Of a stretch of 64,000 bases of DNA, positions 44,396 to 62,959 are shown piece after piece (position 1 is the stretch's first letter; every line of letters begins with the position of its first letter). Origin of the DNA: Dehalococcoidia bacterium (GTDB lineage: Bacteria; Chloroflexota; Dehalococcoidia; GIF9; AB-539-J10); the NCBI GenBank assembly GCA_046538235.1, contig JBKHJG010000003.1, positions 41,722 to 105,721 of the forward strand, in the 5' to 3' direction. Position numbers and translations under genes: made by a program. The notes beneath the pieces are model-generated. The model did not search any database. It was not told the DNA's origin and saw nothing but the letters and a program-made list of their open reading frames with translations.

Positions 44396-44807
44396 GGGTG
44401 AGTAAACCGGGTGATCGCCCCGGCTCAGCGCAGCAGGGGAGGAAAGTCCGAGCTCCACCGAGCAGGGTGCTGGGTAACGCCCAGGAGGGGGGACCCTACG
44501 GAAAGTGCCACAGAAACACACCGCCAGCGGCCCCGATGTTGTCGGGGCGCGGGTAAGGTTGAAATGGTGAGGTAAGAGCCCACCAGCAGCCAGGAGACTG
44601 GCTGGCTAGGCAAACCCCACCCGGAGCAAGACCGAATAAGGGGGCTCGACTTGACCTGGAGCCTCAGGACTGCGAGTCAAGTCTAAGGTGCTCGGCCGAG
44701 GCCCTCGGGTTGGTCGCTTGACCCTGATGGCAACGTCAGGGCTAGATGGATGGTCACCACCCCGAATCGCTCGGGGTACAGAACTCGGCTTATAGGTTTA
44801 CTCACCC
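44396..44807 (+). ncRNA. rnpB: RNase P RNA, bacterial type A
   Basis: The 5' GGGTGAGTAAACC pairs with the 3' GGTTTACTCACCC (P1). Universal conserved blocks are present: GGAAAGTCCGAGCTCCAC, GGGTAACGCCCAGG, GAAAGTGCCACAGAAA, GGTAAGAGCCCACCAG, CCACCCGGAGCAAG and ACAGAACTCGGCTTATAGG. Confidence 0.9.
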
Positions 44808-44808
44808 G
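44782..44808 (+). repeat. attL-like 27-nt direct repeat (within rnpB 3' end)
   Basis: aactcggctta(t)aggtttactcacccg recurs at 62933-62959 with one mismatch (c). Confidence 0.7.
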
Positions 44809-44922
44809 TTGAGTTTGGGGGGATCCGCCGCCTGAGGGTTCTGTGCGGAAGGGGTGGGCCATGAAAAAAAGGGTACCATGGGGTGTTGTGGTTGTCAAGG
44901 GGGGCCGTGGTATAATGGTGGT

Positions 44923-45198
44923 ATGCTTCGCTTTATGATCTTCGCTTCGCTTGCCGCGCTGGCGTTGCTGAGTGGGACCGCCGGCGTGGTGGGGGTGACG
45001 CCTGGCGAGGACGGCGCCGGTGGGACGGAAACCGCCGAACCGGGCGGATCCGGTGGCCCGGAGGGGGCGGTGGAACCGCCGTCGGCGTCGGTGGGGATCG
45101 TCATCACCATGTTCGCCGAGGATGGGGACGGGGCGGAGGGTGCGCGGGCGAGTGTGACGCTGAGGGCGAGGACGGCGCCGGCGGATGAGGGGGGTTAG
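44923..45198 (+). CDS. small secreted Gly/Glu-rich protein (element-borne, only plus-strand gene; candidate moron)
   Basis: An internal ATG gives MLRFMIFASLAALALLSGTAG signal-like N-terminus. It lies just inside attL, downstream of rnpB, on the same strand. Confidence 0.4.
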   Translation: MLRFMIFASLAALALLSGTAGVVGVTPGEDGAGGTETAEPGGSGGPEGAVEPPSASVGIVITMFAEDGDGAEGARASVTLRARTAPADEGG

Positions 45199-45280
45199 GG
45201 GAAAGGAGCTCGAGGAAAACGGGCTCGGGGTTGTCCTCGAAAAAAAGGGCGGAGCCCTTTCGGGCCCCGCCCCAGGGTGG

Positions 45281-45481
45281 TTAGTGCGGCGTCGCGTTCT
45301 TCCATCCGCCGCCGGAGTGGCCGGACTCGCTGGATGGGTCGAGGCGGACCGGAGTCCGCTCCCGGACCCAGCAGTCGCCGATCTGCCAGCCGGCCTTGCG
45401 ACAGGCTTCGTGGGCTGACTCAGCGACGCCGTTCCACCATTCCTTAGTGATGCGGTTCATGATGCGATAGACTTTCTTCAC
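45281..45481 (-). CDS. phage small protein (Cys/Trp-rich)
   Basis: GGAGGA-N5-GTG start. 66 aa. Confidence 0.5.
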   Translation of the reverse strand: MKKVYRIMNRITKEWWNGVAESAHEACRKAGWQIGDCWVRERTPVRLDPSSESGHSGGGWKNATPH

Positions 45482-45647
45482 GGTAGTCCTCCTGTCGTCT
45501 TTGTAGCTCTCGTCTGCGGTGTGCGAGGTCTGCGAGGAAGATCAGGACCTCGGTCTTCCAGGCGATCCACGCGCCGCACTTCGCGTCGGCGAAGCCGGAC
45601 TGGTGGCAGCCGAGCTTGTCCAGGTAGCAGGTCTCGCAGGGGTTCAC
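45444..45647 (-). CDS. phage small Cys-rich protein
   Basis: AAGGAGGT-N5-GTG start. CETC...GC...KC pattern. Confidence 0.5.
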   Translation of the reverse strand: MNPCETCYLDKLGCHQSGFADAKCGAWIAWKTEVLIFLADLAHRRRELQRRQEDYREESLSHHEPHH

Positions 45648-45723
45648 GGTGTACCTCCTTTCTATTGATTGGTTGGGGGCGGGGGTCGGACCCGCCCCTG
45701 TGGGGGGTGGGCGAGGGTGGTGG

Positions 45724-45897
45724 TTAGCGGTCTTGACCGGCGAGGCCCATATCGATGCAGTCCTCGGTGGCCTGGATGGCTTTGTTGATGACGGTGGCGA
45801 ACCGGGTGGTGAGGGCTTCGGTGGCCGTCCTGTTGGGGGCGGTTTGGAGCTGGCGGCGGAGCCGCACGAGGTATTTTAGGGCTTGCTTGTAGGTCAC
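45724..45897 (-). CDS. phage small protein
   Basis: AAGGAGGT-N5-GTG start at VTYKQALKYL. The GTGA overlaps the stop of the upstream gene. Confidence 0.45.
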   Translation of the reverse strand: MTYKQALKYLVRLRRQLQTAPNRTATEALTTRFATVINKAIQATEDCIDMGLAGQDR

Positions 45898-46088
45898 GGT
45901 GTACCTCCTTTCTTGATGTTGGCCAGGGCGTCGGCCTCCGCCGGCTTGATGTGCTGGACGCTCCACTCGAAGTCCTTCTCTTCGAACCTGGCGTCTCGGA
46001 GCATGCGGCGGACGCGGTTGGCCACCGGCTCTCTATCCTTTGCCGTGGTCACAAAATCGGCAGTGATCTGGACGCGGTAGTGCGGCAT
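45894..46088 (-). CDS. phage small protein
   Basis: GGAGGT-N7-ATG. 64 aa. Confidence 0.5.
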   Translation of the reverse strand: MPHYRVQITADFVTTAKDREPVANRVRRMLRDARFEEKDFEWSVQHIKPAEADALANIKKGGTP

Positions 46089-46227
46089 TGTTGAACCTCC
46101 TCTCGAAGATATCGATCAGGGCCTGGACCTCATCGACCTTGAGGCTCAGGTAGTTGGCGATCTCCCTGGGCAGCCAGCCGGCCAGCCAGAGGACCTTGAC
46201 GTGCATGCGGGTTTCGAGGTTGAGCAT
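46033..46227 (-). CDS. phage small HTH protein (sigma-70 region-4/LuxR-like helix-turn-helix)
   Basis: AAGGAGGT-N6-ATG. LAGWLPREIANYLSLKVDEVQALID resembles a region-4 HTH. Confidence 0.5.
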   Translation of the reverse strand: MLNLETRMHVKVLWLAGWLPREIANYLSLKVDEVQALIDIFERRFNNAALPRPDHCRFCDHGKG

Positions 46228-46293
46228 TGAGTTGTACCTCCTTTCTCTATTGGCGGGAGGGGGCCCGGCGCCCCCTCCGGTGGGGTGACGAAG

Positions 46294-46710
46294 TCACCGT
46301 GGTTTGTTGCTGCCGGGCGGGAAGTGCCACTTGTCGCAGGCCTGGCACTTCCAAGCGCGCTTGGGCTGGCCGGTCTTGCGGCTTGTGAACTCGATGAGCT
46401 CCATGGAATCGGACTCGCCGCAGTGGTCGCAGATGGGGGCGAGGTTGGGGTCGGCGAGGGTGTTGGAGAGGGGCGTCCTGGGACTTTGTGCGGGGGGCTG
46501 CGGCGAGTTTTGGGGGGCGCGGAGCTGGGCGGCGGCGATCTCCCGGGCGGCGTCGGTGGCGGGGGTCCAGGCGGTAGGGAATTGCTGGGCTATGATGCCC
46601 AGGTCGGCGAAGATCTCGGCCAGGGTGTCGGCGAAGACGTTGATCCTGGCGTCGCGGCCCTGGAGCGCCACCTTTATTTCGGCGTGGTATCGGCTACCGT
46701 TGACGGCCAT
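46294..46710 (-). CDS. phage protein with C-terminal CxxC...CxxC zinc ribbon
   Basis: ICDHCGES...KCQACDKWHF. The start is probably the second ATG after AAGGAGGTG. Confidence 0.55.
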   Translation of the reverse strand: MAVNGSRYHAEIKVALQGRDARINVFADTLAEIFADLGIIAQQFPTAWTPATDAAREIAAAQLRAPQNSPQPPAQSPRTPLSNTLADPNLAPICDHCGESDSMELIEFTSRKTGQPKRAWKCQACDKWHFPPGSNKPR

Positions 46711-47353
46711 GGTCATCACCTCCTTTCGTTCTAGCGGTAGTTATGGTCTTACGGGTCACCAGGACGCCGGGGATCTGGGTGACTCCGCTCTTGACGCGGG
46801 CCCTGATCTTGGTCATGGAGGGCTCGCAGAGGTCCCTGGGAACACGGTTAGGGTCCACGATCTGTATGTCGTGGTCCTCTCTGTATGTGACGGTGCCCAG
46901 GTTTGCGCGGGACGTCTTGTGGACGTCGGGGAGGTCGAGGAAGTCGGGGGGATCTAGGATCTCGCCGGTGGCGGCGGCCTCCTCCATGAGAGCGGCCTGC
47001 TCCTCCATGGCCCTGCGCTGCTCGGCCATCTGGAGCTCGAGGAGCTGGGTGCGGTAGTTAGCGAGCTCGCGGTTGACGGTGGTGATGCCCTGGGAGAGGC
47101 GGTCCAGGTAGGGCTGGAAGAGGTCCATGACCCTCTTCTTCGCCTGGTCCAGGGGGCGGGTGAGCTCTCTACGCTTCTCGTCGGCCTCCTTGTAGGCGTA
47201 ACGGGCGGCGATCAGGAGATCCTCCGCGTTCTTTTGCTCCTGGGTGTTGGTGACCTGGGGGTTGGCCAGCCAGCGGAGCAAGGAGTGCTGGCCCTGCTCG
47301 AGGGTGGTAAGGGCGTCTTCGACTTCGGTGTCGGGTGAGATTACCTGTGCCAT
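46694..47353 (-). CDS. phage coiled-coil protein, unknown function
   Basis: AAGGAGGTG-N6-ATG at MAQVIS, an internal start within the track ORF. 220 aa. Confidence 0.55.
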   Translation of the reverse strand: MAQVISPDTEVEDALTTLEQGQHSLLRWLANPQVTNTQEQKNAEDLLIAARYAYKEADEKRRELTRPLDQAKKRVMDLFQPYLDRLSQGITTVNRELANYRTQLLELQMAEQRRAMEEQAALMEEAAATGEILDPPDFLDLPDVHKTSRANLGTVTYREDHDIQIVDPNRVPRDLCEPSMTKIRARVKSGVTQIPGVLVTRKTITTARTKGGDDHGRQR

Positions 47354-47415
47354 GGCGGCACCTCCTTTGATGTATTCGGCGGTTCGATACGCTCGAGCGC
47401 CTTGGGCGGGGGCGT

Positions 47416-48244: not shown

Positions 48245-49227
48245 GGAGCACCTCCTTGCGCAGGCACGCCGGGGCGGCCGACATGCCTGCTGTTTCTTTC
48301 TCCCAGGTTGCTATACCCGGCCCGAAGGGCGAAAAGCCCGGGAAGAGGGTAAAGCAAGGGCGGAGCCGACAGGCGACGGGAGGGTTGCGCGCATCGAGGG
48401 ACGGCGGTTTCTTGCCCCTCTCTCCTACAAAAAACCGACGGAACTTGAGCCGCAACTCGCGCCGGCCAAGGGATGGGCCCCTGGCCAAGCGACCCGCAGG
48501 GCCGACGAACCCTTGCTCCGTGGGAGATCGACGGCCGAGCGCTCGCGAGCGGTGACGGACCGGCGACAAGCCGGGGACCAGGGCTAAGCAAGCACCGAGA
48601 CGAAGCGAGCGCGGGCATGAAACAATAGGGAAAGCAGCAGGCATAAACAGGGGCTGGCCCGCGAAGCCGCGAGGCCTATCTGCGCCTGCGGCGCTTCGGC
48701 GCAGTCCAGCGTGGCGCCGTCTCCGGCCGGAACGGCCCTGCCGCAGCCGGCCCTTTCGGCGCCGGCAAGGCCCGGAGCGAACCGCCCTGCGCCGAACTCT
48801 GCCTCACCCTTTCGGCGCTGCGGTGAGCGACCTCGCCGACCCGGCTGGCCGGGTCCACGGAGGCTGAAAAGGGGCAAGAGTAGAACGCGGCGAAAGCGGA
48901 CGTCTCCTTGCCCTGGCGCCTTTCGCCGGCGGGCCCTCAAGGCATAGGCCGTGAACCCGGGAACGAGCTATGCCTCCCTTCGCAGCAGGCGGCCTTCTGG
49001 CCTGGTGCGACCGCCGGCGCCCTCCGCAAAGGTGAAGGAGCGGACGCCGCCGCCCACCCTGTGCGCCCCTTTTGAGCTGTAGCGGTACGGGTACCTGTAC
49101 GCGAAGCGAGCACTGGCCGGCGTAACGGATTTTCTTCCTTATTGCTCCCCGACGGCCGGGCGAGCTGAGCTGCGCGTGTGCGGGCGGAGGGGGGTGGTGC
49201 GTGGGGAAAAAAGAGAGGGCCGACGGA

Positions 49228-49521
49228 TCAACCGCTGGCCTCGTTTACGATGCGCACATGGTACAGCCATGAGCGCCGGCCGCGCACAAAGCCCTGCAGC
49301 ACGCGCCACCACTGCTCGGCCGAGCCGAACCCGCTGTACCGCACGAATGGCCGCAGGTCATCGACGGACCGGACCTCGCCGAGCTTGCGCCTGTAGCACC
49401 GACCGACGCCATCGACCCATACGTGAGCACACGACATGTCATAGCCGCGCGCCGTGTAAACCTGGCCGTGCCGCAGCAAGCACTCACGCACGCACCGAAC
49501 CGAAAACTGTATTTTCTTCAT
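49228..49521 (-). CDS. phage small protein
   Basis: AAGGAGGTG-N6-ATG at MKKIQFS, an internal start of the track ORF. 97 aa. Confidence 0.5.
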   Translation of the reverse strand: MKKIQFSVRCVRECLLRHGQVYTARGYDMSCAHVWVDGVGRCYRRKLGEVRSVDDLRPFVRYSGFGSAEQWWRVLQGFVRGRRSWLYHVRIVNEASG

Positions 49522-49711
49522 GACTGCACCTCCTTTTCGCCCCTGGGTAGCAGCCGCCCTTGTTGTCAAGGCGTTTACAGCGCCCTTCGGTCCCTCCGCG
49601 TGCCTTGACAACCTCCTGGCTGCTATAACCCTTAGAAGGAGGTGCAGCATAGAAAATGCTCGGGTGCGTGCGCTTGCGGCGGCACGGCGGTGGGGCGCGG
49701 GTGGGTCCCTC

Positions 49712-49902
49712 CGGGTGGGCACCTGACAGGCCTGAAGCACGCCTGGCTTCTATGGAGCTGGGGTGGTGCGGTGAGGGGTGGGGCGACTGATCCGGGCCAG
49801 GCGATGCCGGGAGGGCCTGTCTTTGGTGCAGGCGGTGAGGGGTTGACGTCGGGTGGGCACCGGAGAAGCGCGAAGCTGGCTTCTCTTTGGTGCAGGTGGT
49901 GG
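49712..49902. repeat. two roughly 130-bp imperfect direct repeat units (GGGTGGGCACC...CTGGCTTCT...CTTTGGTGCAGGYGGTG)
   Basis: GGGTGGGCACC occurs at about 49713 and 49841. CTGGCTTCT occurs at about 49743 and 49876. CTTTGGTGCAGG(C/T)GGTG occurs at about 49820 and 49885. The region is non-coding. Confidence 0.6.
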
Positions 49903-50400
49903 CCGGCCGCGGCCCGGCGGGCTGACTTCAGCGCCGTTGCGGTGCGACGGGACGGGAAGAACGACGGGCGAACATGCCGGGCGCGATCATGACGGCGGCG
50001 TGGCTGGAAGGCCGACGGGGCGCGGGCCGGCGCGGCGACGCACGGTAGCGGTGACGATGACGATCGGTGACGGTGGCGGTAACGGTAGCGCTGACGGAAC
50101 GAGTGTGGTGGTGGTGTGGTGGTGGTGGTGTGGTACGGAGGCGGTGGCAAGATAACAAACCGACGAGGGCGGGCGCCCCTGCCTCGAGGCGGCGGGCGTG
50201 ACGAGCGGAGCCGTCGGGCCGAACCCAGCGATGAGTAGCGAGCCGGCCGCCGCCGTCGCCCGCCCGAAGCCTGCGGCGGCGTAGCCGACGCCCTGGATGA
50301 CCCGATTGACCCAGGTGACTGCGGGCTGACACGAAGATGACCCTTCGGAAGATGACCGTTGGGAAGAGGTGTGGTGTGGGGGCCCGGGAGACCTTCCCGA

Positions 50401-51164: not shown

Positions 51165-53219
51165 TCATCGGGCCCCCAGGGTGAGGGTGTGCTGGTAGCG
51201 TGGCCGGCGCCGGTCCAGGGCGATCCGATCGCCGAGGACGCGAAACTTGCGGGCTGATATGCCGCAGCGAGGGTCCGTGACGTCGATGACGTCGTAGGGT
51301 TCCAGGCCGACGTTGGCAGGGGTGGTGATGGCGGCGGGGGTGGCCTGGAGCTCGGCCAGCCGGAGGATGGCCAGGGCCCTCTCCTCCAGGCGGGCGATGA
51401 CGTCCAGGTTGGGGTCGTAGGCCTGCTCGAGGATATCGATGCCGTCGTGCAGTAGATCCCAGTCGAACTCGTCGTGGACCAGCCGGTCGGCGGAGGCGTC
51501 CCTGCCCAGGGCCCGGGCGCGGGACAGGGTGACAGCATGGCGGTAGCTGCCCTGGAAGATGCGGTGGGCGTCGGGGCCGTAGCTGTAGGCGGAGGCCTCG
51601 GTGGGGCGGGGGTCCTTGGTCTGCGCCAGGCCTCCGGGCAGAAACATGAGTCGGTCGGGGACCAGGGCCAGGAGGCGCCTGAGGACCGTATCGCCGGCCG
51701 TGCCCGGGGTTATGGTAAAGTCGGGGTAGAAGTTATCGATGGCCGAGGAGCGGGGCTGCGGGGGGTCGGTGGTGAGACGGAGTCCTACCCGCGCCAGGAC
51801 GCGGTACATGATCTGCCAGACGCTGCGGGGGGAGCTGGCGTCCTTATTCCAGCGGAGCTGATGCCTGGGGGTCCAGGACCGGAGCAGGCCCCAGCCGTCG
51901 GTGGCGGTGATGATAAACAGGGACCGCCCGGGGCCGTGGGTGTACTCCCAGGACTCGATCCACAGGGTGGCGAAGTCGAGGGTCTCGTCTCCGGCACTGG
52001 TCCGGTAGCCGAGCTCGAGATCGAGCCGGGCGCGAAAGCGAAGCGAAGCCAGGGCGCCGGCGCCGGGGGTCGAATACTGGCCTTTGGAGTTGTTGAGCTC
52101 CAGGCCGAGGGTGCCCGGGCGGTTTACTGTCAATGAGGTTATATCCGGGCTGAGGTCGATGGCGGCCATGGGCGCCCTGGCGGCCCTCCACACTCCGGAG
52201 GGCATCTCCATCCACCAATAGGCGGACGTGGTTGCGAGCCTGAGGCCGTAGTCGGGGGCGATATCCAGGAGCGGCGCCGGCTCGGTGAAGGTGGTGTCGG
52301 TCCAGTCCGTCCCCGGGACCACGTGGCAGGCCAGGGGACGGGTGTAGGCGGTTGTGCCGGCGAACTTCTCGGTCAGGGTGACGCGAGACGTCTCGTAGGA
52401 CTGGGCGGAGGCCGGCAGGTGCACGTCGGGGTAGTGGAAGGTGAGGTCCTCTCCGTCGGGGGCCATGAGGAAGCTCTCCAGGGCTCCGAAGGACCAGAGG
52501 TCGCTAAACCAGGTGCGGAACAGGTTGTGGTGGTTGTAGGGGCTGGCCGACTGCTTGCCGGCGAACACGATGTTGCAGCGGGGCCCGGAGGAATCGTAGG
52601 TGGCTCCGATGCCGTAGGTGTTGGTGATGACGATGGGCTCGGGAGGCGTGTAGGACTTGACCTTCTGGCTGGTGACCTGGGTGTCGGTATCGAGGCGGAT
52701 GCCGTTGATCTCGTCGGCCTTGAGGGCGAAGCAGATGACCGTGCTGGACGTGCCCCACCAGCAGGCGGCCAGGGAGAGCACGTCGGCATAGTCGACCAGG
52801 AGCTCGTCGTCCCAGTTGCTGCCGTAGTCGTGGGTGTAGATCTTGATGATGGCGTTGGGGTAGGGGATATAGCTGGAGGTGGTGCGGCAGAAGATGTAGA
52901 CCCGGGACCCGGAGGCTGTGATGGCGCAGGGGCCCTCGCACTCGGTGAGGACCAGCTCCCAGGTTGAGTAGTTGGACGTCGGGCCGGGGTTGGTGATCCT
53001 CTGGCGGTAGAGGTTGGTGCCGTCCACGCGGAGCCGCCACATGGCGCCCTGGTCATCGAAGGCGATATCGTGCTGGCCCTGGGCCTCGGTACCGGAGTAA
53101 AGCCTCTCCCAGGACAGCCTCTTGACGCCCTGGTACAGGTCCGAGACGGTGGCCTTGACGCAGGGCAGCCGGTGCGGGCTTTTCTGGGCTGCCTCGAGGG
53201 TGGGGGTGAGCGTTTTCAT
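51165..53219 (-). CDS. large virion-associated protein (candidate tail/host-recognition or other structural protein)
   Basis: 684 aa. It is the last large gene of the morphogenesis operon. No Walker motifs. Beta-rich. Confidence 0.5.
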   Translation of the reverse strand: MKTLTPTLEAAQKSPHRLPCVKATVSDLYQGVKRLSWERLYSGTEAQGQHDIAFDDQGAMWRLRVDGTNLYRQRITNPGPTSNYSTWELVLTECEGPCAITASGSRVYIFCRTTSSYIPYPNAIIKIYTHDYGSNWDDELLVDYADVLSLAACWWGTSSTVICFALKADEINGIRLDTDTQVTSQKVKSYTPPEPIVITNTYGIGATYDSSGPRCNIVFAGKQSASPYNHHNLFRTWFSDLWSFGALESFLMAPDGEDLTFHYPDVHLPASAQSYETSRVTLTEKFAGTTAYTRPLACHVVPGTDWTDTTFTEPAPLLDIAPDYGLRLATTSAYWWMEMPSGVWRAARAPMAAIDLSPDITSLTVNRPGTLGLELNNSKGQYSTPGAGALASLRFRARLDLELGYRTSAGDETLDFATLWIESWEYTHGPGRSLFIITATDGWGLLRSWTPRHQLRWNKDASSPRSVWQIMYRVLARVGLRLTTDPPQPRSSAIDNFYPDFTITPGTAGDTVLRRLLALVPDRLMFLPGGLAQTKDPRPTEASAYSYGPDAHRIFQGSYRHAVTLSRARALGRDASADRLVHDEFDWDLLHDGIDILEQAYDPNLDVIARLEERALAILRLAELQATPAAITTPANVGLEPYDVIDVTDPRCGISARKFRVLGDRIALDRRRPRYQHTLTLGAR

Positions 53220-54753: not shown

Positions 54754-55007
54754 TGCTGTTTGTTCTCCTTCCTGTGCATGTATGTACGCTCGCCGAAGTA
54801 CCACAATATACAGGGGATGGCCAGGCTGATGAACCAGGGCGGGGGCTCGATCTCCGCCAGGACGGCGCCGGCGATGGTGCCGGCGAATATGACGGTGACG
54901 ATGGGCCGGGTGGCTGCCCTGGCCGTCTCGGCGACTGCGTTTTGCCGCGCCAGAGGGCACTGAGAGGCCGAGGGCGGCCCCTGTTTTGCCTGGGCCGTGT
55001 CTTTCAT
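54750..55007 (-). CDS. phage small membrane protein (2 TM; holin-like topology)
   Basis: 85 aa with two hydrophobic helices. ATGA coupling occurs at both ends. Confidence 0.45.
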   Translation of the reverse strand: MKDTAQAKQGPPSASQCPLARQNAVAETARAATRPIVTVIFAGTIAGAVLAEIEPPPWFISLAIPCILWYFGERTYMHRKENKQQ

Positions 55008-55321
55008 GCCAGGTCCTTGAGGGTTTCCGGGACCTCCCTGTCGGCCTTGCGGTAGTGGTTGGCCAGGTGCCTGGCGGCTCGGGCCTTCTGCTCGCTGGGG
55101 GCCTCCACCTGCTGCCCGCGGTGTCCGCCCGGGCTGAGGGCGGCGACTGCTGCCGGCATGCGGTCCCAGTCCACGGTGGCCTCGATATCGAGGCGGCCTC
55201 TGAGGGCCCGCCAGATTGACCTGGTGTGATGGGGGAGCTTCCAGGTGTCGGGATCCCGGGCGTCTCCCACTATGGCGAAGGCCTGCCGGGGTAGCCCTTC
55301 CTTGCTTAGCTGCTCGCTCAT
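55004..55321 (-). CDS. phage protein, paralog A of tandem pair
   Basis: It shares HHTR...IDWEAMPAA.AAL...EQ...AARHLA.HY..A.R.VP.TL with 55329..55541. Confidence 0.5.
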   Translation of the reverse strand: MSEQLSKEGLPRQAFAIVGDARDPDTWKLPHHTRSIWRALRGRLDIEATVDWDRMPAAVAALSPGGHRGQQVEAPSEQKARAARHLANHYRKADREVPETLKDLA

Positions 55322-55328
55322 TTGGGTC

Positions 55329-55541
55329 CTATGTCATGGCGGCCAGGGTGGCCGGGATCGGCCTGCCGGCGTTGTGGTAGTGCCGGGCCAGGTGCCGGGC
55401 TACCGCCAGGCGCTGCTCGGGACTGGCCGGTACGGGCGGCCGGGTGTAGGACCCGCGCAGAGCTGCGATGGCGGAGGGCATGGCCTCCCAGTCGATGGCC
55501 CCTTTCCTGGTGTGGTGCGGATAGTTCCTTAGCTCGCTCAT
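55329..55541 (-). CDS. phage protein, paralog B of tandem pair
   Basis: See 55004..55321. Confidence 0.5.
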   Translation of the reverse strand: MSELRNYPHHTRKGAIDWEAMPSAIAALRGSYTRPPVPASPEQRLAVARHLARHYHNAGRPIPATLAAMT

Positions 55542-55551
55542 TTTATGCTCC

Positions 55552-55761
55552 TTAAGGCGTGAATACTGCTATGATGACGGCATCCCTGGGGTTATGGCGT
55601 GGCAGGGCGAGGATGACGTGGCGGCCGGCGACCATCTCACCGGCCGCGATGTTCCTGGCCACGGGCACGGCGTCGAAGTAGGTGCTGGTGGACGACACGA
55701 GCTGGACCTCCGCGGTATGGGTCCCGCTGTCGAAGCCCTTGAGTATGCCCACTTCCAGCAT
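55552..55761 (-). CDS. phage small structural protein (head-tail adaptor region)
   Basis: 69 aa. Placed by position between the capsid gene and downstream genes. Confidence 0.4.
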   Translation of the reverse strand: MLEVGILKGFDSGTHTAEVQLVSSTSTYFDAVPVARNIAAGEMVAGRHVILALPRHNPRDAVIIAVFTP

Positions 55762-55765
55762 TTGA

Positions 55766-56359
55766 CTACTCCTCTACGTACAGGTCGCGGGTGCGGACGC
55801 GGCTGGACCAGGCGATGCGCTTGAGCTCGGCCTTGTACTGCTGGAGGCGCTCCTTGCCCCAGTCGCGGTAGTTGATGGTGGCCCTGTCGCCGGACATGGT
55901 GGCACGGTCCACGGTATAGGCGGAGATGGACATGGCCAGGTAGCCGGTGGTGCCCAGGATAATGATCTCCGCGTGCTCCTCGGGGATGGTAGTGCTGGTG
56001 GTGGTAACCTCATGGCGCTTGGTCCAGCGGACGCGGGCGTCGCTAACTCCATCTCCCTCGGAGGTCATGGTGAGGTGGCCGGCCCAGTAGTTGAAGCGCT
56101 GGTAGTAGGGCGGCGACTGGTCCACGGGGTACTCGACGGAGAGGACCTTAATGAGGGCGGTGAGGCTGGAGATGTCGATCTCGCGGCTGGAGGCGGTGGT
56201 GGCGACGTCGTCCTGCTGCTCGATGGGCGCGCGGAGGGAATACTCGTCGACGACGCGCAGAAGCATATTCTCGATGTCGTTGTCGGACCACAGCTGCTGC
56301 GCCGGGTCGGTGTCCATGAGATCTTCCCGGACCCTTTCTCTGAGCTCGTTGAGGTTCAT
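55766..56359 (-). CDS. putative head-tail connector / head completion protein
   Basis: 197 aa immediately downstream of the major capsid gene. Identified by gene order only. Confidence 0.4.
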   Translation of the reverse strand: MNLNELRERVREDLMDTDPAQQLWSDNDIENMLLRVVDEYSLRAPIEQQDDVATTASSREIDISSLTALIKVLSVEYPVDQSPPYYQRFNYWAGHLTMTSEGDGVSDARVRWTKRHEVTTTSTTIPEEHAEIIILGTTGYLAMSISAYTVDRATMSGDRATINYRDWGKERLQQYKAELKRIAWSSRVRTRDLYVEE

Positions 56360-56493: not shown

Positions 56494-57435
56494 TTAGTCG
56501 GTCACTCCTATGAGGGCTGCCCTGGCCACGACATTGAAGTCCACCAGGGAGCAGTACCACTTGAGGCGGTGCCTGGTGGCGTCCTTGGTCTCCAGGGTGC
56601 CCACGCGCTCGATCTGTATGCCCTGGTTGGTGGCCCCGCAGACGGCGCCCTCGCCGAAGCGGAGGGCATAGATGGTGCTGCAGGTCCCGCCGGTGACGGC
56701 CGTCTCGTAGCCGGACGTGAGGACGTGGGTGTCGAGGATCCAGTCGTTGATGGCAACGGGGATGCCGTTCCACAGCTGGATGAAGTTGCCCCACTGGTCA
56801 CGGTCCGTCTCGATGGCGAAGCCGGCCGCCCGGGCCAGCTCGTTCATCTTGCGGCGGCTGCGCCGGCTCATCATGAGGATATCGGGCTTGCCGCCCTTGA
56901 CGGCGTCTATGAGGTGGTCCACCTTGGAGAAGGTGAGGGTCCCGCCGGTGCCGCCCATGGTGACCACCTGGTCGCTGGGCCCGCCGGTCGCTATGAGCTT
57001 GACCAGGCCGTCGAAGGCGTTGGCGTCGACGGTCTGGCCGGTGAGGTATGTGGCGGTGGTACCGTAGACCAGGGTTCTCTCGAACTCGTGCCTGAGGGAC
57101 TTGGCGGCCAGCTCGAGGACTGCAGCCTCGATATCCTGGATGTTAGACCGGGTCTGCCTTATGAAGTTATCCAGGTCGGCGTCGCGGCCGAGGATGGAGA
57201 GGGTGGCGGTGAGCGGGTCGAACTCGGGAGCGGTGGGCTGGTCCCAGGTGCCCAGGGGCGGGAACCACTTGGCGGCGGCCAGGGCCTTCTCCCTGTTGTA
57301 GGTGAGGCCGTTGCCCTCGATCTCGATGAAGGGCGTGACCTGGAGTATGGGGCTCTCCTTGAGGATGGTCTCGATGACGCCTCTCAAGAGGACGTCGTTG
57401 GTGAGCTTTGCTGATTCGGCTAGTGTTAAAGCCAT
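56494..57435 (-). CDS. putative major capsid protein
   Basis: 313 aa. The N-terminus (MALTLAESAKLTNDVLLRGVIE) is typical of phage major capsid proteins. It directly follows the scaffold gene, with the ATG overlapping the scaffold stop. Confidence 0.6.
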   Translation of the reverse strand: MALTLAESAKLTNDVLLRGVIETILKESPILQVTPFIEIEGNGLTYNREKALAAAKWFPPLGTWDQPTAPEFDPLTATLSILGRDADLDNFIRQTRSNIQDIEAAVLELAAKSLRHEFERTLVYGTTATYLTGQTVDANAFDGLVKLIATGGPSDQVVTMGGTGGTLTFSKVDHLIDAVKGGKPDILMMSRRSRRKMNELARAAGFAIETDRDQWGNFIQLWNGIPVAINDWILDTHVLTSGYETAVTGGTCSTIYALRFGEGAVCGATNQGIQIERVGTLETKDATRHRLKWYCSLVDFNVVARAALIGVTD

Positions 57436-57980
57436 TAGCTAGTTCCTCCTTGCGATTGTGATAGGCCCAGCTTGATCTTCTCCGCGGGGGAGAGGCTCTC
57501 CAGGTCGATGGCCCTGGTGGGGGCTCCGGCCGGCACGCGGGTGTTCCTGGCCTCGTTCTCCAGGCTGGCCTTGACCGCCTGGGCGATGGCCTGGGCCTTC
57601 TCCACCGAGGCGTCTATGTCCTCGATGGTGCTGCCGGCGATGGTCTCCGGGGGCAGAGACGGGTTGGCCGCCTTGACGGCCTCCAGGTATTTCTGGACGG
57701 CGGCGCCGTGGGCCTCCTGGAGGGTGGTCCGCTCGGCCTGGGCGGCTTCGCTGAGCTGCCTGGCTTCGCTGAGTTCGGTCTGGAGGAGGGCGATATGCTC
57801 GTCCTTCTCGGTGAGGGCGGCCAGGGCCTCAGCGGCTGCGGTCCTCTCCTCCTCCAGCTGGGCCCTGATGGACTCCAGGTCCTCTTCCGTGGATACGCCG
57901 TCGGTCTCTGCGGGTGCGCCCGGGTTCTCCTGGGGTTCCTGATCTTGCTGTTCGTTGTCTTGTTCCTGTTCTTCGGGCAT
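57435..57980 (-). CDS. putative scaffolding protein
   Basis: 181 aa, acidic, with a predicted coiled coil (IRAQLEEERTAAAEALAAL...). It lies between the portal and capsid genes. Confidence 0.55.
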   Translation of the reverse strand: MPEEQEQDNEQQDQEPQENPGAPAETDGVSTEEDLESIRAQLEEERTAAAEALAALTEKDEHIALLQTELSEARQLSEAAQAERTTLQEAHGAAVQKYLEAVKAANPSLPPETIAGSTIEDIDASVEKAQAIAQAVKASLENEARNTRVPAGAPTRAIDLESLSPAEKIKLGLSQSQGGTS

Positions 57981-57998: not shown

Positions 57999-59375
57999 CT
58001 ATTCGGGCACTTCCATCTCCGGGGCCGTCGCTCTCTCTCTCGCTCCGCCTCGGGTGGAGCGTGCCTGGAACTCCTGGTTCATTTCCAGGATCCTTTTCCT
58101 CTCCTGCAGCCAGCGGTCGAACTCCTCGTCGGGGTCCTGGATGTTCATCTGGTCCATGGCGGTCCTGCGGCTGTGTACTCCCGCCTGGACCAGGAGCTGC
58201 TCGGTCTGGGCCTGCCGGTCGGTGTCCTGCGGCAGTATGGGGCCCCAGACCATTCGGTGGTTGACGTCGTGAAAGTCGTGCTTCATGTAGATCTCGGCCA
58301 GTGTGATGATCATGGCGTTGCGCCGGTAGTAGACGTTGGTGCGGACCAGGCGCTTGCGGATGACCTTCTGAATGAGGGACCCGAGCTCGATCCTGAGGGC
58401 GGCTCCGGAGAGCTCCCGCTCCACGCCGCCCCAGGCTGCCCGGGGCGTCTCCGAGACGTCGTGCATGGTGCGGTAGACGTGGTCGATGTAGTCGATGTGC
58501 AGCCTCACTCCTCCACCCTGGAGTAGATCGAGCAGGTAGGCCTTGGCGTCCTCGGGTATGGTCCACAGGGCGCCGGGCTGGACCTTGATGTCCTCGGCCT
58601 CTGAGACGTTCTCCAGGACGGCGATGGGGTTGCCGGAGAGCTCCAGGATCCGGGATAGCTGGGAGAAGGCGCGGTTCAGCTCCCTCTGGGGCTGCATGAT
58701 GACGGGGATGTCGGACACCCCCCAGAAGTGCTTGGGATCGCGGACGTTGGGGAAGATGATAAAGGGGATAAAGCCGTAGGGGTTTGGCCTGGACTCTATG
58801 AGGGCGTTCTCGATATAGAGCGAGAACTCGTCGGCGGTCCACAGCTCGGTGACCGTGGCCGTCTTGCGGCCCGGGTCGCGGCCGTAAAGGACCGTAACCT
58901 CGTCCTGGTCCAGGGTGTACCGTGAGGCCACGCGCCAGACGCGGGACAGGTCGTCTCCGATCCACCAGGCGAAGATCCCGGAGACATCGGGGGCGGTGAC
59001 CCTGATGCGCTTCTGGTCGGCATCCCAGGTGACCTTGTAGCAGCCGTCGCCCAGGACGGCGGTGTCGACCTCGGTCTCGTAATCGAGCTGGTCCAGGTTG
59101 TTGTCGTGGCGGACCTGGTTGATCAGCTCCTCGGCCCGGCGGGCCCGGGCCAGGGCGTCCTCTCCCTGGGCGGCGGGGAAGCAGGTAAAGCTGGCGCCGT
59201 GCATGAGAAAGCTGGTGACCTTGTCGACCACGGCCTTGGCATAGTTAAAGACCAGCTGGCGGTGTCGGGTTCGCGTCTCCCAGTGCTGGCCCTGGTAGAA
59301 ATTGAGGTTCTGGAGGTATCTGGCCCGCCGGTCCGTGTCGATGCGATTGAGGTGGGCTGGGTTGAAGTCATTCAT
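57999..59375 (-). CDS. putative portal protein
   Basis: 458 aa. The N-terminus carries ...YLQNLNFYQGQHW. It directly follows the large terminase gene, overlapping it by 8 nt. Confidence 0.6.
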   Translation of the reverse strand: MNDFNPAHLNRIDTDRRARYLQNLNFYQGQHWETRTRHRQLVFNYAKAVVDKVTSFLMHGASFTCFPAAQGEDALARARRAEELINQVRHDNNLDQLDYETEVDTAVLGDGCYKVTWDADQKRIRVTAPDVSGIFAWWIGDDLSRVWRVASRYTLDQDEVTVLYGRDPGRKTATVTELWTADEFSLYIENALIESRPNPYGFIPFIIFPNVRDPKHFWGVSDIPVIMQPQRELNRAFSQLSRILELSGNPIAVLENVSEAEDIKVQPGALWTIPEDAKAYLLDLLQGGGVRLHIDYIDHVYRTMHDVSETPRAAWGGVERELSGAALRIELGSLIQKVIRKRLVRTNVYYRRNAMIITLAEIYMKHDFHDVNHRMVWGPILPQDTDRQAQTEQLLVQAGVHSRRTAMDQMNIQDPDEEFDRWLQERKRILEMNQEFQARSTRGGARERATAPEMEVPE

Positions 59376-60744
59376 CTCTGAGTCCTCCTTTGGCTGCCCT
59401 GGGGCGGAAGTCCCTGGCGGCCTCGGCTGTGAGTGCCAGGCTGACCAGGAAGTCGTCGTGTCCCTCCTGGGGATCGACGTAGAAGTTCATGGTCTGGTTG
59501 GGGCGGTACTGGGACCTGGCCCTTTCCAGCTGGAGCGTGAGCTCCTGGTACTCGGGGGACCCGTCCTTCTTATAGATACGCAGCCGGCCGCTGTTGACCA
59601 GTGATAGCAGCTCAAAGCCCATGTCGGACTTGCTCCTCTGGGTAAAGGTGAACGGGACGATGCGGCTGCCGAGGTGGCTCCTGAGGAAGCTGGCGACGGG
59701 CTGCCCGATGCCTGTGCTGTCGACCAGGACCTTGTGACAGCCCCAGGCCTGGAGGATGCCCACCATCTGGCCGTAGAGCTGGCTGTGCGGTGTTCCGGTC
59801 CAGTGGTAGTGCTCCACGACCTTGACGGCCGGCTCGGTGAGGGGTGCCTGGGACCTCTGGGTGGTGTCGACTTCGGCTATAGTGATGACTGTGGAGTCCA
59901 GTTTTGAGCGAGCTGAGGCGAGGGCCTGTTCCTTGGTCTCCTCGCGCTCGCCGGCGAGGTCGATGCCTGCAACGTAGGTCTTGCCGGGCTCGGGATCCTT
60001 ACGGCGGGGGTATGTGCCGGCAAGGGACACGATCTGCTGCCTGGTGAGGAAGCCGCCGCCGCCGCGGAGTGGAAGAAGCAGGTACTGTGTGCGGAATAGC
60101 GGGTGGTCCTCGCCCAGGCGGTCGCGCTCGGCCTCTACGTAGCGGCCGTATTCGGGGTTGTGCCTGGCGACGTCCTGCCAGTCATAGCGGAAGTGGCGCT
60201 TGATGCCGTCCCTCCGCTCCAGCTCGAGGTTGGTCTGCTTGACCTCTTCCAGCAGGGTGGTGTCATCCCAGGTGGTTCCGTAGTGCACGGTGGTGACGTT
60301 GGTAGAGGACCCCATGGGTCGGAACTCCTTGCTGTACTTCTCCTTGCTCACGTCCTGGGACTCGTCGATCTCCAGGAGAATGTCGGCTGTGTGGCCGACT
60401 ACAGAGGCATGCTCGTCGGCGGAGAGGAATACGGCCCTGGCCGCTCCCAGGGTGAGTATGTACCCCATCTCGAGGCGGTAGGTGCCGTCGAAGCCGAACT
60501 CTTCCAGGCGGTCCTTGAGGCGGGCGATGGAGACGATGGTCTGGGGCTTGAAGGTGGGGGAGCACTTGACCAGGCTGCCGCCTTGGGCCATGTAGAGGGT
60601 GAGGAGGAGCACTTCCAGGTGTGCTGACAGCTCGTTCTTGCCGCCCTGGCGGGCGATCTCGACGGAGAGGGTGAGGCCTTGGCCGTCCCGGATGCTGTCC
60701 AGGACGGCCCGGGCTACCTCCTGCTGGTAGGGCCTGAGTTTCAT
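59368..60744 (-). CDS. terminase large subunit
   Basis: MKLRPYQQEVARAVL...VEIARQGGKNELSAHL is a Walker A-like RQxGK. 458 aa. Confidence 0.7.
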   Translation of the reverse strand: MKLRPYQQEVARAVLDSIRDGQGLTLSVEIARQGGKNELSAHLEVLLLTLYMAQGGSLVKCSPTFKPQTIVSIARLKDRLEEFGFDGTYRLEMGYILTLGAARAVFLSADEHASVVGHTADILLEIDESQDVSKEKYSKEFRPMGSSTNVTTVHYGTTWDDTTLLEEVKQTNLELERRDGIKRHFRYDWQDVARHNPEYGRYVEAERDRLGEDHPLFRTQYLLLPLRGGGGFLTRQQIVSLAGTYPRRKDPEPGKTYVAGIDLAGEREETKEQALASARSKLDSTVITIAEVDTTQRSQAPLTEPAVKVVEHYHWTGTPHSQLYGQMVGILQAWGCHKVLVDSTGIGQPVASFLRSHLGSRIVPFTFTQRSKSDMGFELLSLVNSGRLRIYKKDGSPEYQELTLQLERARSQYRPNQTMNFYVDPQEGHDDFLVSLALTAEAARDFRPRAAKGGLRDE

Positions 60745-61094
60745 CTTGATAGCTTTGCGCCGACGGCTATGCCGACGCCGAGGGGCGCGGCCACGTCGGT
60801 GAGGACCTTCTGGATGGCCTCCTTGAGGGTCTTTTTCTCCTGTCTGCTGATCTGGTAGCGGGTCCTTACCAGGCGGGCTATGACGTTGGCCGCCTGGAGG
60901 TGTAGGTCGATGCGGTCCGGTGAGTTCTCTATGAGCTGACGGAGCTTCCAGCGGAGGATGGCGATCTCGTCGTCGATGCCCTCGAGGTCCATGAGCTGCT
61001 GAACCTCGAGTTGCTCGGCCTCTGTGAGGGCCCGGGAGTAAAAGCCGTGCTTACGGGCGTTCTGGTTTCCGGCGGGTGGTCCTTTTCTTGCCAT
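60741..61094 (-). CDS. putative terminase small subunit
   Basis: Internal ATG start at MARKGPPAGNQNARKHGFYS, with the GNQNA.KHG motif. 117 aa. Confidence 0.5.
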   Translation of the reverse strand: MARKGPPAGNQNARKHGFYSRALTEAEQLEVQQLMDLEGIDDEIAILRWKLRQLIENSPDRIDLHLQAANVIARLVRTRYQISRQEKKTLKEAIQKVLTDVAAPLGVGIAVGAKLSR

Positions 61095-61212
61095 TGATGC
61101 GGTCCTTCTGCGCGGCCTTGGCCTTGAGCATGCCGTACACGAGGACGTGGGCGGCCAGGTCATAGCGCTGTGCTTTGAGTGCGAGCGGGAGAACCTTAGC
61201 TTTAGCTTTCAT
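61051..61212 (-). CDS. phage small basic protein
   Basis: Internal start at MKAKAKV, preceded by GGAGG. 53 aa. Confidence 0.4.
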   Translation of the reverse strand: MKAKAKVLPLALKAQRYDLAAHVLVYGMLKAKAAQKDRINGKKRTTRRKPERP

Positions 61213-61399
61213 GGTGTCGGCCTCCTGTGCGTGTTTGGGTAAGGTCCCGGGCGAACTTCTCGGTGACTGCGCGGGCGATCCAGGTCCCGATATCGAGGCC
61301 GGCAATGGCGGCTGCGGATTTGGCCATGCGGCGGGCCTGGGGCGGGAAGTTACGGATGTGGTAGCCCTTGTCCTTTGTGTTAGCGGTCTTGGTGTTCAT
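61202..61399 (-). CDS. phage small protein (possible DNA-binding)
   Basis: 65 aa, basic N-terminus (...MAKSAAAIAGLDIGTWIARAVTEKF). Confidence 0.4.
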   Translation of the reverse strand: MNTKTANTKDKGYHIRNFPPQARRMAKSAAAIAGLDIGTWIARAVTEKFARDLTQTRTGGRHHES

Positions 61400-61790
61400 G
61401 TTCCCTCCCGGCTAGTATTGCGGCGGTGTTGGCGGCGGCGATGGCCGCGTAGGACGTCTTGGCGTCGGGGGTGATCTGGTAGCGGGTGTTGCGGCTGTCG
61501 CCCAGCCTGGTGATGGTCACGGACGCAAAGTTGGTGTCGTGCGGTCGCGGTACTGTCCTGAGGTCGGTCATGACTTGGTCTCCGAATTCCCAGGCCGCCG
61601 GCTGGTTGTCAATGAGGAGGCGGGCCTGGTAACGCCATCGTGTGGGGAGGCCTGCGAGGCAGTGGGGGCATCCCTGGCCGAGGCAGAGCTCGCTCCTCTG
61701 CCCGGTCCAGTGTTTGGGGACGCTCTTGATGGATGCGAAGTCGATGCTGGCATGGACGCTCTCTCCCTCTTTGATCCTGAGCCACTGCAT
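61380..61790 (-). CDS. phage hypothetical protein with CxxC motif
   Basis: Internal ATG at MQWLRIKEGE. CLGQGCPHC. Confidence 0.45.
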   Translation of the reverse strand: MQWLRIKEGESVHASIDFASIKSVPKHWTGQRSELCLGQGCPHCLAGLPTRWRYQARLLIDNQPAAWEFGDQVMTDLRTVPRPHDTNFASVTITRLGDSRNTRYQITPDAKTSYAAIAAANTAAILAGREHEHQDR

Positions 61791-62956
61791 TGCCTCTCCT
61801 CCTGTCGGCCGTATTCGGGCGGGGGCGGGGGGAAGGCACACTCACTGCTGTGCACTCTAACCTTCGATGTCTCCCCCGGCGTTCCCCCATGTCGTTCATT
61901 GCTTAAGCTTAAGCTTAAGCGCTTAGACTTACACTTCTTACTATCAGGTATTGAGCTTACGCTTCCGCTTTCGTCAAGCAGGGCGATCGCAGACTGAAGG
62001 TGCGAGGGTAGCAGGTCCAGGTAGACGGCGGTGGTGGATATGTCGGCGTGGCCGAGAAGGGCCTGGACTGCGGTGATGGGGGCTCCCTGCTCGAGAAGGC
62101 GGGTGGCGAACTGGTGGCGGAGGCTGTGCGGTGTGAGGTCGGTGATGCCGGCGGCCACGGCGTATTGCTTGACTATGGTATAGAGGCGCTTCCGCTGGAA
62201 AGGAAAGAGGCTGTCGGTGGGCTTGATGCGGTTGGACGCGATGTGCTCGGCCAGGGGTTGCCGGAGGACCTGGCTGAGGGGGATGGCGCGGTCCTTGCCT
62301 CCCTTGCCCCTGCGGACCAGGATGAAGTCGGGCGTGATGTCGCAGGGGCGGAGGTTAAGCAGCTCGGATGCGCGCAGGCCGGTGAAGGCCAGCATAAGGA
62401 GTATGAGCCTGTCCCGCGCCTTGTTCCTGGACCAGCTGTCGGTGCGGGCGTCGATGGCCTGGAGCATTGACTCGAGGTCCTGTCGGGAGTGGTACTGGGG
62501 GAGCTGACGGGGCCTCTTGAACTTGAGCTTGAAGGGTATGCCCTGGTACTCAAGGAAGGGTTTGATGGCGTGGTAGTATAGCTGTATGCTGCGGGGGCTG
62601 TAGGCGTGGGTCCTGAGGTCGGCGAGGAAGGCCCGGGCAGCCTGGGGCGAGATGGGCCGGCGGTCCAGCCAGGTGGCGAAGGTGGTGAGGCACTGCCTGT
62701 ATTTGGCGATGGTGGTGGGTGATAGGTCCGGGTTAAGTTCGACCTCGCTGAGGTAATCGTGTAGCAGGGCGACGCTGTAGCCTGGCGGCTCTGCTGGCAC
62801 CGGTAGTACCCCCCAACCCGTCCCGTGATCGCTAGTCAGATGGGAGCTGCTAGTGGGGTGTGTATGGTAGCGGTTGGGGTTGGGTGGTGTCAAGGGGTGG
62901 GCCCGGGGCCGGCCTGAGGTGAGGGGACACATAACTCGGCTTACAGGTTTACTCAC
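61568..62956 (-). CDS. tyrosine recombinase / phage integrase (XerC/D-like)
   Basis: Catalytic-domain motifs: RDRLILLMLAFTGLRASELLNLR (Arg box I), HSLRHQFATRLL (His-x-x-Arg box II) and LLGHADISTTAVYLDL (catalytic Tyr). The GTG at 62956 lies inside attR, so the true start is probably downstream. The C-terminal roughly 130 aa of the ORF is low-complexity read-through, probably not part of the protein. Confidence 0.8.
   Translation of the reverse strand: MSKPVSRVMCPLTSGRPRAHPLTPPNPNRYHTHPTSSSHLTSDHGTGWGVLPVPAEPPGYSVALLHDYLSEVELNPDLSPTTIAKYRQCLTTFATWLDRRPISPQAARAFLADLRTHAYSPRSIQLYYHAIKPFLEYQGIPFKLKFKRPRQLPQYHSRQDLESMLQAIDARTDSWSRNKARDRLILLMLAFTGLRASELLNLRPCDITPDFILVRRGKGGKDRAIPLSQVLRQPLAEHIASNRIKPTDSLFPFQRKRLYTIVKQYAVAAGITDLTPHSLRHQFATRLLEQGAPITAVQALLGHADISTTAVYLDLLPSHLQSAIALLDESGSVSSIPDSKKCKSKRLSLSLSNERHGGTPGETSKVRVHSSECAFPPPPPEYGRQEERQCSGSGSKRERASMPASTSHPSRASPNTGPGRGASSASARDAPTASQASPHDGVTRPASSLTTSRRPGNSETKS
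61901..61920. repeat. perfect 20-nt palindrome GCTTAAGCTTAAGCTTAAGC
   Basis: Self-complementary (AAGCTT)x3 core, immediately after the conserved integrase catalytic-Tyr region. Confidence 0.8.
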
Positions 62957-62959
62957 CCG
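62933..62959 (+). repeat. attR-like 27-nt direct repeat (displaced copy of rnpB 3' end)
   Basis: aactcggctta(c)aggtttactcacccg lies immediately upstream of the integrase gene. Confidence 0.7.

Follow-up and report, generated by a model that had tools for sequence, protein, structure and literature searches.

The DNA considered here is a stretch of 64,000 nucleotides (referred to as the window) from a metagenome-assembled genome (MAG) of a Dehalococcoidia bacterium (assembly GCA_046538235.1, contig JBKHJG010000003.1, positions 41,722 to 105,721). It very probably harbours a temperate phage-like element of this bacterium, which has been inserted by an integrase into the 3' end of rnpB, the gene for the RNase P RNA. 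The gene at 44399-44808 (plus strand) is a complete bacterial class A rnpB (Rfam RF00010, 290.2 bits against a threshold of 100, covering model positions 1-367), and it is the sole complete RNase P RNA gene that Rfam finds in the window. Its end, AACTCGGCTTATAGGTTTACTCACCCG (44782-44808), is repeated as AACTCGGCTTACAGGTTTACTCACCCG at 62933-62959, with 26 of the 27 nucleotides identical and a single change from T to C. A first-pass annotation of this DNA had reported that the last 27 nt of rnpB recur with one mismatch 18.15 kb away, and that the copy at 62933-62959 lies directly beside a tyrosine integrase gene. Both of these observations are confirmed, as the gene in question matches the integrase family (Pfam, 1.9e-33) and starts 132 nt from the distal repeat. 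The principal features of the site are listed below.

44361-44389, plus strand: promoter-like site of rnpB, TTGACG-17-TAAAAT (consensus match only)
44399-44808, plus strand: rnpB, whose terminal 27 nt form the left repeat copy (Rfam; helix P1 fully paired)
44782-44808, plus strand: attL core, made up of the 3' half of the conserved ACAGAACUCGGCUUA segment and the 3' strand of P1
44809-62932, no strand: element body of 18,124 bp (the repeats start 18,151 bp apart), delimited by composition and missing at 61 related loci
61568-62800, minus strand: tyrosine integrase, XerC/D-like, with a SAM-like N-terminal domain (Pfam Phage_integrase, 1.9e-33)
62864-62893, minus strand: promoter-like site for the integrase, TTGACA-18-TACCAT (consensus match only)
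62933-62959, plus strand: attR core, the displaced 3' end of rnpB, preceded by the conserved element end GGGGACACAT
62960-63341, plus strand: host flank, which directly follows rnpB in related genomes

The 27-nt repeat occurs in the window in two copies only, even when up to 3 mismatches are allowed, and 0 copies are expected from shuffled sequences, so that within the window it is not a common motif. Upstream of the repeat, a weaker similarity continues for another 9 nt (44773-44808 versus 62924-62959, 89% identity). The repeat core spans the 3' part of the ACAGAACUCGGCUUA segment, which in the established RNase P RNA structure pairs with GAGGAAAGUCC as helix P4, together with the entire 3' strand of P1. 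In the rnpB gene all 10 base pairs of P1 form, in addition to a G-U closing pair, and all but the G11 position are Watson-Crick. The mismatch between the two repeats falls at the position which pairs with G11, where the copy attached to rnpB gives G-U and the distal copy would give G-C. The same position is also polymorphic (C or T) in the unoccupied rnpB genes of relatives and, as both bases are found there, an attempt to deduce from the mismatch which of the two copies is of host origin was abandoned. Judged from its sequence, the target rnpB is intact after the insertion. No terminator was found after rnpB at either attL or attR.

The composition of the DNA between the repeats is also distinct. 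The element has a guanine-plus-cytosine (GC) content of 64.1%, compared with 58.1% in 45 kb of flank, where all of the 2-kb windows are at or below 61.3%. The correlation of tetranucleotide frequencies with the flank profile is 0.92-0.96 within the flanks and falls to 0.74-0.87 in the element, and both of these shifts coincide exactly with the repeats. The GC content above that of the flanks, which the first-pass annotation had described as visible and for which it had proposed GC and tetranucleotide profiles, is thus borne out, and the tetranucleotide profile shifts as well.

Empty sites and an insertion polymorphism in related genomes

For comparison with other genomes, a virtual attB site was made by joining positions 43001-44808 of the window to positions 62960-64000, and it was compared with loci from public collections (loci fetched from these collections are designated by L-numbers, viz. 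L001, L009, etc.). The predicted junctions are ...GGGGTACAGAACTCGGCTTAYAGGTTTACTCACCCGGAAATATTTCC for attB and ...GGGGACACATAACTCGGCTTAYAGGTTTACTCACCCGTTGAGTTTGGGG for attP. In 61 metagenomic loci the junction of the virtual attB is spanned by a single alignment of about 830 nt, showing 77-80% identity, and in a multiple alignment the 3' end of the relatives' rnpB runs seamlessly into the homologue of the sequence which follows the distal repeat in the window, and then into the next gene. Because these 61 loci align across the junction, the 18 kb of DNA is inserted when measured against the arrangement common in this group of bacteria. An unoccupied rnpB site, for which the first-pass annotation had suggested a search in close relatives, is therefore present in these genomes, and it is not the case that all relatives carry the same content at rnpB. 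Its central proposal, viz. integration into the 3' end of a structured RNA gene with reconstitution of that end, is well supported by the intact rnpB, the duplicated end, the integrase, the phage genes and the empty sites.

Both states of the site can also be followed within one host lineage, for a sister element whose integrase core is about 66% identical to that in the window. The loci recovered from this lineage represent attB (L085 and L101), attR (six loci) and attL (six loci). In attB, rnpB is followed by the host flank; in attR the element end and the core are followed by the same flank; and in attL, rnpB is followed by the other end of the element. The empty locus L085 is 99.1% identical to the host flank of L009 up to the core, and 98.3% identical to the rnpB side of L131 from the core onward. 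As L009 and L131 lie on one 235-kb contig, with their cores at positions 6516-6551 and 33358-33393, the sister element is present or absent within one species as a precise insertion of 26,842 bp, bounded by the repeat. On two further contigs both junctions of the sister element are found about 27.0 kb apart. In addition, in L112 two element ends are joined through the core in an attP-type junction, which by its sequence would be an excised circle or a tandem array.

The relatives of about 27 kb differ from the element in the window mainly by about 6.6 kb of DNA adjoining attL. This cargo consists of genes for an Eco57I/MmeI-like N6-methyltransferase (1109 aa) and a PLD-SNF2 helicase (1098 aa), both in the same orientation as rnpB. 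This defence-like pair is placed right after the restored rnpB in the 27-kb sister elements (L128, 472-7101; L068), and a 113-nt segment is repeated on either side of it. In the window, the same slot is occupied by a small open reading frame (ORF) at 44923-45198. Information regarding the full length of such elements is provided by L018, an IMG/VR contig of 17,171 bp from a relative of the group associated with comEC (see below), which is one circularly permuted genome equivalent. In this contig, the homologue of a 684-aa protein of the window's element is split, with aa 1-116 at the contig end and aa 136-683 at the contig start, and the end-to-start join is in frame; the integrase end is likewise joined to the other end of the element. 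The family thus includes genomes of about 17 kb that are circular or circularly permuted. Because L018 holds a whole genome in 17.2 kb, its sequence suggests that 18 kb is the full length for this element family, including the element in the window.

Gene content of the element and alternative explanations

In the minus-strand order, starting from the distal repeat, the element contains the integrase, small genes, the genes for the small (terS) and large (terL) terminase subunits, the portal, a scaffold-like protein and the major capsid protein, and then genes for conserved small proteins. These are followed by a DUF5131 gene, the 684-aa protein and further small genes, up to a terminator at 45246-45273. 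The remaining features of the element are as follows.

44923-45198, plus strand: small ORF of 91 aa with a hydrophobic N-terminus, next to attL (ORF only, no ribosome-binding site found)
45246-45273, minus strand: terminator-like hairpin with a 12 bp stem and a T run, which closes the minus-strand block
45281-46227, minus strand: five small genes, each with a AAAGGAGGT ribosome-binding site
46294-46716, minus strand: 140-aa zinc-ribbon protein, kept in relatives
46694-47353, minus strand: 219-aa protein matching PHROG 10477 (annotated exonuclease), kept in relatives
48250-50400, no strand: stretch without codon periodicity, with short direct repeats at 49712-49922
51165-53219, minus strand: 684-aa conserved protein, candidate tail or receptor-binding protein
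53681-54565, minus strand: DUF5131 gene in a GC dip, missing from all related loci
55004-56359, minus strand: conserved post-capsid genes for proteins of 197, 69, 70 and 105 aa, presumed head completion or connector proteins (role from position)
56494-57435, minus strand: major capsid protein of the epsilon15 gp7 type (NF045672, 159 bits, cut-off 75; Pfam SU10_MCP)
57435-57980, minus strand: 181-aa acidic, Ala/Glu/Gln-rich protein, presumed scaffold (position and composition)
57999-59375, minus strand: portal protein, SPP1 Gp6-like (Pfam, 6.7e-20)
59368-60744, minus strand: terminase large subunit (Pfam; 31% identity to the terminase of Bacillus phage vB_BboS-125)
60741-61163, minus strand: terminase small subunit (phrog_1889, 3.2e-09)
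61380-61841, minus strand: 153-aa CxxC protein, kept at 62-66% identity, overlapping the integrase tail in another frame

Neighbouring genes of the element overlap by 1-8 nt and the AAAGGAGGT ribosome-binding sites are near-identical across the set of small genes. The first-pass annotation had described this DNA as a uniformly minus-strand block of translationally coupled, phage-type genes with uniform ribosome-binding sites. The phage-type genes and their overlaps agree with this description; however, the uniformity does not hold, as the ORF at 44923-45198 lies on the plus strand and the stretch at 48250-50400 lacks coding periodicity. This stretch of about 2.2 kb is very GC-rich, and on its minus strand hairpin-like motifs with GAAA caps are numerous; a single gene with a ribosome-binding site is found in it (49228-49521, minus strand), and its long ORFs look spurious. 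A large structured RNA with GNRA-like loops was considered for 48250-49230 and rejected, as there was no Rfam match and the fold z-scores were -0.29 (minus strand) and -2.24 (plus strand). The GC dip (55.7%, 53681-54960) is situated amid the structural genes and has no counterpart at any related locus, and its genes look like a recent insertion or later acquisition. The DUF5131 gene itself weakly matches 'radical SAM mobile pair protein A'; the same interval also holds an ORF of 132 aa, which is doubtful. Among the post-capsid genes, those for the 70- and 105-aa proteins are adjacent paralogues (55020-55075 and 55345-55400, 79% identity over 56 nt), whose homologues are found in overlapping stretches of related loci.

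Outside of the element, the DNA upstream of rnpB contains a tRNA-Ser(UGA) gene (42187-42276) and the gene of a 473-aa leucine-rich-repeat protein (42538-43959). No alignment was obtained between the DNA upstream of the rnpB promoter and those relatives in which the downstream flank is shared.

The head and packaging set, viz. terS, terL, portal and an HK97-fold major capsid protein, is present, and this particular copy of the element may still be able to excise and to form infectious particles. There are, however, several observations which weigh against the reading of a temperate phage-like element. Genes for tail, lysis and replication functions were not recognised in Pfam, PHROGs and NCBIfam, and an internal stretch of about 2.2 kb appears not to code for protein. 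An empty site from the same strain was not found, the strict attB pattern being without a match in the metagenome collection, and neither was an attP junction for the exact strain; the only recovered same-strain contig spanning a junction (L141, run SRR21542051) is an occupied attR. Further, of the four attP-like contigs from relatives, three (L084, L034 and L129) may be remnants, tandem arrays or mis-assemblies. In these loci, an element-end-like sequence and the core are joined to the other end and host-like genes are present (e.g. a DUF1848 homologue). They had been considered as clean attP contigs and were dropped on account of these host-like genes and the lack of an integrase beside the junction. 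Other look-ups gave similarly limited results: those by exact protein for the flank and end genes returned short contigs only, viz. L001, which ends inside rnpB, and L141; five such look-ups, that of the integrase included, returned no record; the 27-mer had no match in IMG/VR; and the motif of element end plus core was found only in two contigs that had already been recovered. With regard to lysis, no holin or endolysin genes were recognised in the Pfam and PHROGs scans. Cultivated Dehalococcoides lack peptidoglycan, and because of this a classical endolysin may be unneeded.

Among deposited phages, none has a terL more than 31% identical to that of the element, and a comparison of the 684-aa protein with 50,697 phage records yielded no match. 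The 684-aa protein has 440 homologues at 53-59% identity, all of them unnamed and none with a Pfam domain. In its structural model (mean predicted local distance difference test score, pLDDT, of 52) only the N-terminal, beta-propeller-like part finds fold matches, which are generic beta-propellers including sialidases and one phage receptor-binding protein. Going by this model, the 684-aa protein could be a minimal tail or receptor-binding protein, and it is possible that the element is a minimal podovirus-like phage or a capsid-forming satellite.

If the element is a fixed, defective prophage remnant at rnpB, in which excision and particle formation have been lost, then the unrecognised tail, lysis and replication genes, the 2.2-kb stretch without coding signal, the one-base difference between the repeats and the occupied attR on the sole same-strain junction contig would all be accounted for. 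However, the size and gene order match those of the 17.2-kb circularly permuted relative, the integrase and all of the conserved head genes are full length in comparison to their homologues, the mismatch position is polymorphic in unoccupied rnpB genes as well, and the composition shows no drift toward that of the host. We therefore consider a remnant to be unlikely. A satellite resembling the capsid-forming phage-inducible chromosomal islands (cf-PICIs), which would make its own small heads, package itself and use the tails of a helper phage, agrees with the small size of 17-18 kb and with an integrase and complete head and packaging module without recognisable tail genes. The family-wide 684-aa protein, however, follows the head genes and its beta-propeller-like domain is possibly a minimal tail; an AlpA- or Stl-type regulator and a primase-replicase were not found in domain scans, small genes and the terminase coming straight after the integrase; a helper phage is not known; and the order of integrase then terminase is unlike that of described PICIs. 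A satellite is thus also an improbable explanation.

Two other explanations deserve far less weight. A compact head and packaging operon in one orientation could be a domesticated gene-transfer-agent-like cluster lying next to rnpB by chance. However, this cluster has an integrase of its own and flanking att repeats, it is missing from 61 related genomes, its relatives are present at other sites and its composition is foreign; in view of the integrase, att sites and empty sites this explanation is effectively excluded. Lastly, since the sequence comes from a MAG, the repeat could be due to chance or to an assembly artefact, a phage and a host contig having been fused at a short sequence present in both. 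We give this hardly any credence, as both junctions are on one contig and the host flanks are contiguous in relatives, an independent run assembles the same attR junction, the same architecture is seen on three other long contigs of the sister element, and zero chance occurrences of the 27-mer are expected.

The integrase, its target choice and a proposed mechanism

The catalytic motifs of the integrase (R, K, H-x-x-R, H and Y) are readable as GLRASE, KGGKDR, HSLRHQ and GHADISTTAVY, and they align with those of the XerC-like integrase of L002, a Bacillota locus described below. No arm-binding domain was detected in the integrase of the window by Pfam. The protein is identical to an NCBI protein of a Dehalococcoidia MAG, and its relatives number in the thousands, mostly of about 380-390 aa. 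The ORF extends about 130 codons beyond the catalytic domain as a low-complexity, poorly conserved tail (61568-61841), and the overlap of this tail with the 153-aa CxxC gene is preserved in relatives (e.g. L009, 7540-7768).

The relationship between integrase sequence and target is consistent. At all 10 distinct loci recovered in which the integrase core is at least 64% identical, GGGGACACAT and then an rnpB 3' fragment are found upstream of the integrase gene. The host tails following this fragment differ (ACTCACCCG, ACTTGCCACC, GCTTGCCACC and GCTTACCCCACC), which indicates that separate hosts are represented. In a 59% relative (L016), the rnpB 3' fragment is in the opposite orientation upstream of the integrase (1-125), and the contig starts exactly at AACTCGGCTTA. 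The relatives at 51-55% identity, in contrast, lack the rnpB fragment, and at least two of them lie beside a truncated comEC-like gene (the comEC-associated relatives are L011, 8254-10000; L019, 1-190; and L017/L018, upstream of the integrase), which suggests a sister subclade inserting into a competence gene. As the rnpB fragment is present at the loci of at least 64% identity and missing at those of 51-55%, the choice of target follows the integrase subclade. The gene order of integrase, small genes, terminase, portal and capsid is shared by the relatives' loci. Where the hybrid rnpB genes of relatives depart from the empty-site allele, the alternating bases are A/G facing a U or C/U facing a G; such differences are wobble-compatible, so that P1 stays paired in these genes.

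These results can be accommodated in the following scheme. The attP site would hold a copy of the terminal ~27 nt of rnpB, i.e. the 3' part of the ACAGAACUCGGCUUA segment and the 3' strand of P1, and the XerC/D-like integrase would recombine attP with attB within this block of identity. The crossover would join the body of the host rnpB to a complete 3' end at attL, and the other copy of the 3' end would be left stranded at attR, 18.15 kb away, beside the integrase gene. Because a complete 3' end is supplied by the crossover, the RNase P RNA would remain intact in the lysogen. Similar motifs of about 30 nt (GGTA...GTGGTKGTCAAGGGG) are also seen, in direct orientation, inside both ends of the element (44870-44902 and 62866-62900); they would flank the core in attP, and the right-hand copy holds the -35 of the integrase promoter.

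A wider reading, which we put forward only tentatively and regard as somewhat unlikely in its entirety, is that the element belongs to an undescribed lineage of very small temperate Dehalococcoidia viruses (17-18 kb, or 27 kb with cargo), in which one integrase subclade is specialised on the rnpB core, complete particles have a minimal tail built around the 684-aa protein, cargo is expressed by read-through and the host range is tied to the RNase P RNA. If this is true, then these viruses would be among the smallest integrase-bearing tailed phages. The slot after the restored rnpB would be one for co-oriented cargo (a small secreted peptide here, the methyltransferase and PLD-SNF2 helicase in relatives), and the strong rnpB promoter would drive the expression of this cargo by read-through. 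The host range would depend upon the RNase P RNA sequence because the supplied 3' strand of P1 must fit the 5' strand of the host.

Aside from this wider reading, rnpB is essential and single-copy in most bacteria, and it carries one of the most conserved short bacterial sequences. Because of this, nearly every genome offers a potential landing site to an integrase clade aimed at rnpB, a point of practical interest where the genomes of bacteria that are uncultivated or hard to transform are to be engineered with integrases. Dehalococcoidia are abundant in sediments and aquifers, and the element family provides a handle on their poorly known viruses. The element also extends the structured RNA attachment sites beyond tRNA, tmRNA, 6S and 4.5S RNA, and search tools which are restricted to tRNA and tmRNA genes will miss rnpB elements.

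rnpB as a target in comparison with known systems

Full-text literature searches for rnpB as an attachment site yielded no paper describing one. The first-pass annotation had considered rnpB to be an uncommon attachment site, which is a fair assessment; however, the site is not unprecedented. The TIGER island Mav1.21.RNaseP_RNA of Mycobacterium avium 104 (21,286 bp, with a tyrosine integrase at one end) has its repeat, gaacagaatccggcttacaggccaactcgtccgcc, at the same sublocation of rnpB (Mageeney et al. 2020, supplement; PMC7192596). This island is similar to the element in the window in its size of about 21 kb, in its location at the 3' end of rnpB with the gene restored, and in having a direct repeat that runs from the same conserved segment (gaacagaatccggcttacagg...) through the 3' strand of P1. 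It differs in that its host is an actinobacterium, in being of the TIGER type 'Other' rather than a prophage, and in that its integrase is, by the listed coordinates, apparently rnpB-proximal, whereas here it is distal. The island is mentioned in a table, without analysis, in PMC7192596, and in the main text of that work ssrS alone is highlighted as a new RNA target.

A third instance is seen in L002 (1-4140), from the Bacillota MAG044. This is a different mobile element, with a 301-aa XerC-like integrase that is 32% identical to that in the window, a regulator pair of the XRE/ImmA type and a PIN-like gene, and at its end lies an rnpB 3' fragment with the native rnpB terminator after it; the full rnpB is present on another contig (L006) of the same MAG. 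Based on the element in the window, the M. avium 104 island and L002, rnpB is targeted in at least three phyla.

The model of 3'-end replacement is established for tRNA and tmRNA targets (Williams 2002; PMC7192596), and the Dehalococcoides ssrA islands are the nearest case within the same bacterial class. Such islands share with the present element a tyrosine integrase, an attB overlapping the 3' end of an RNA gene, a replacement end and a displaced direct-repeat fragment. However, the target here is the RNase P ribozyme RNA, the segment concerned is part of a catalytic-core helix strand plus P1 rather than the acceptor or T arm, and the cargo is a phage head module in place of the dehalogenase genes of the ssrA islands. 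Among other structured RNAs, ffs (4.5S RNA) was presented as a novel attachment site, that of phage phiEf11, in a 2025 paper, in which the known RNA targets are tRNA, tmRNA and csRNA (PMC12540744). The elements in ssrS (6S RNA) and ffs resemble the one in the window in having a core of about 27 nt in a structured RNA gene other than tRNA, an integrase near attP and a restored gene. They differ in the RNA concerned, in their occurrence in Proteobacteria and Firmicutes, and in being ordinary prophages of roughly 15-50 kb.

In its gene content, the element is comparable to podoviruses with the epsilon15-type head, as its capsid protein is above the cut-off for this family (NCBIfam MCP_gp7_epsi_15) and it also has a portal and a terminase large subunit; however, its genome is less than half the size of that of epsilon15. 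With the cf-PICIs it shares the character of a small integrase-bearing island with its own terminase, portal and capsid, whereas the regulator and replication module of the PICI type is not found here and the gene order differs. Thus, the element in the window represents a known kind of integration at a rare and barely documented target, by a member of a family of small phage-like elements of Dehalococcoidia that had not been described before.

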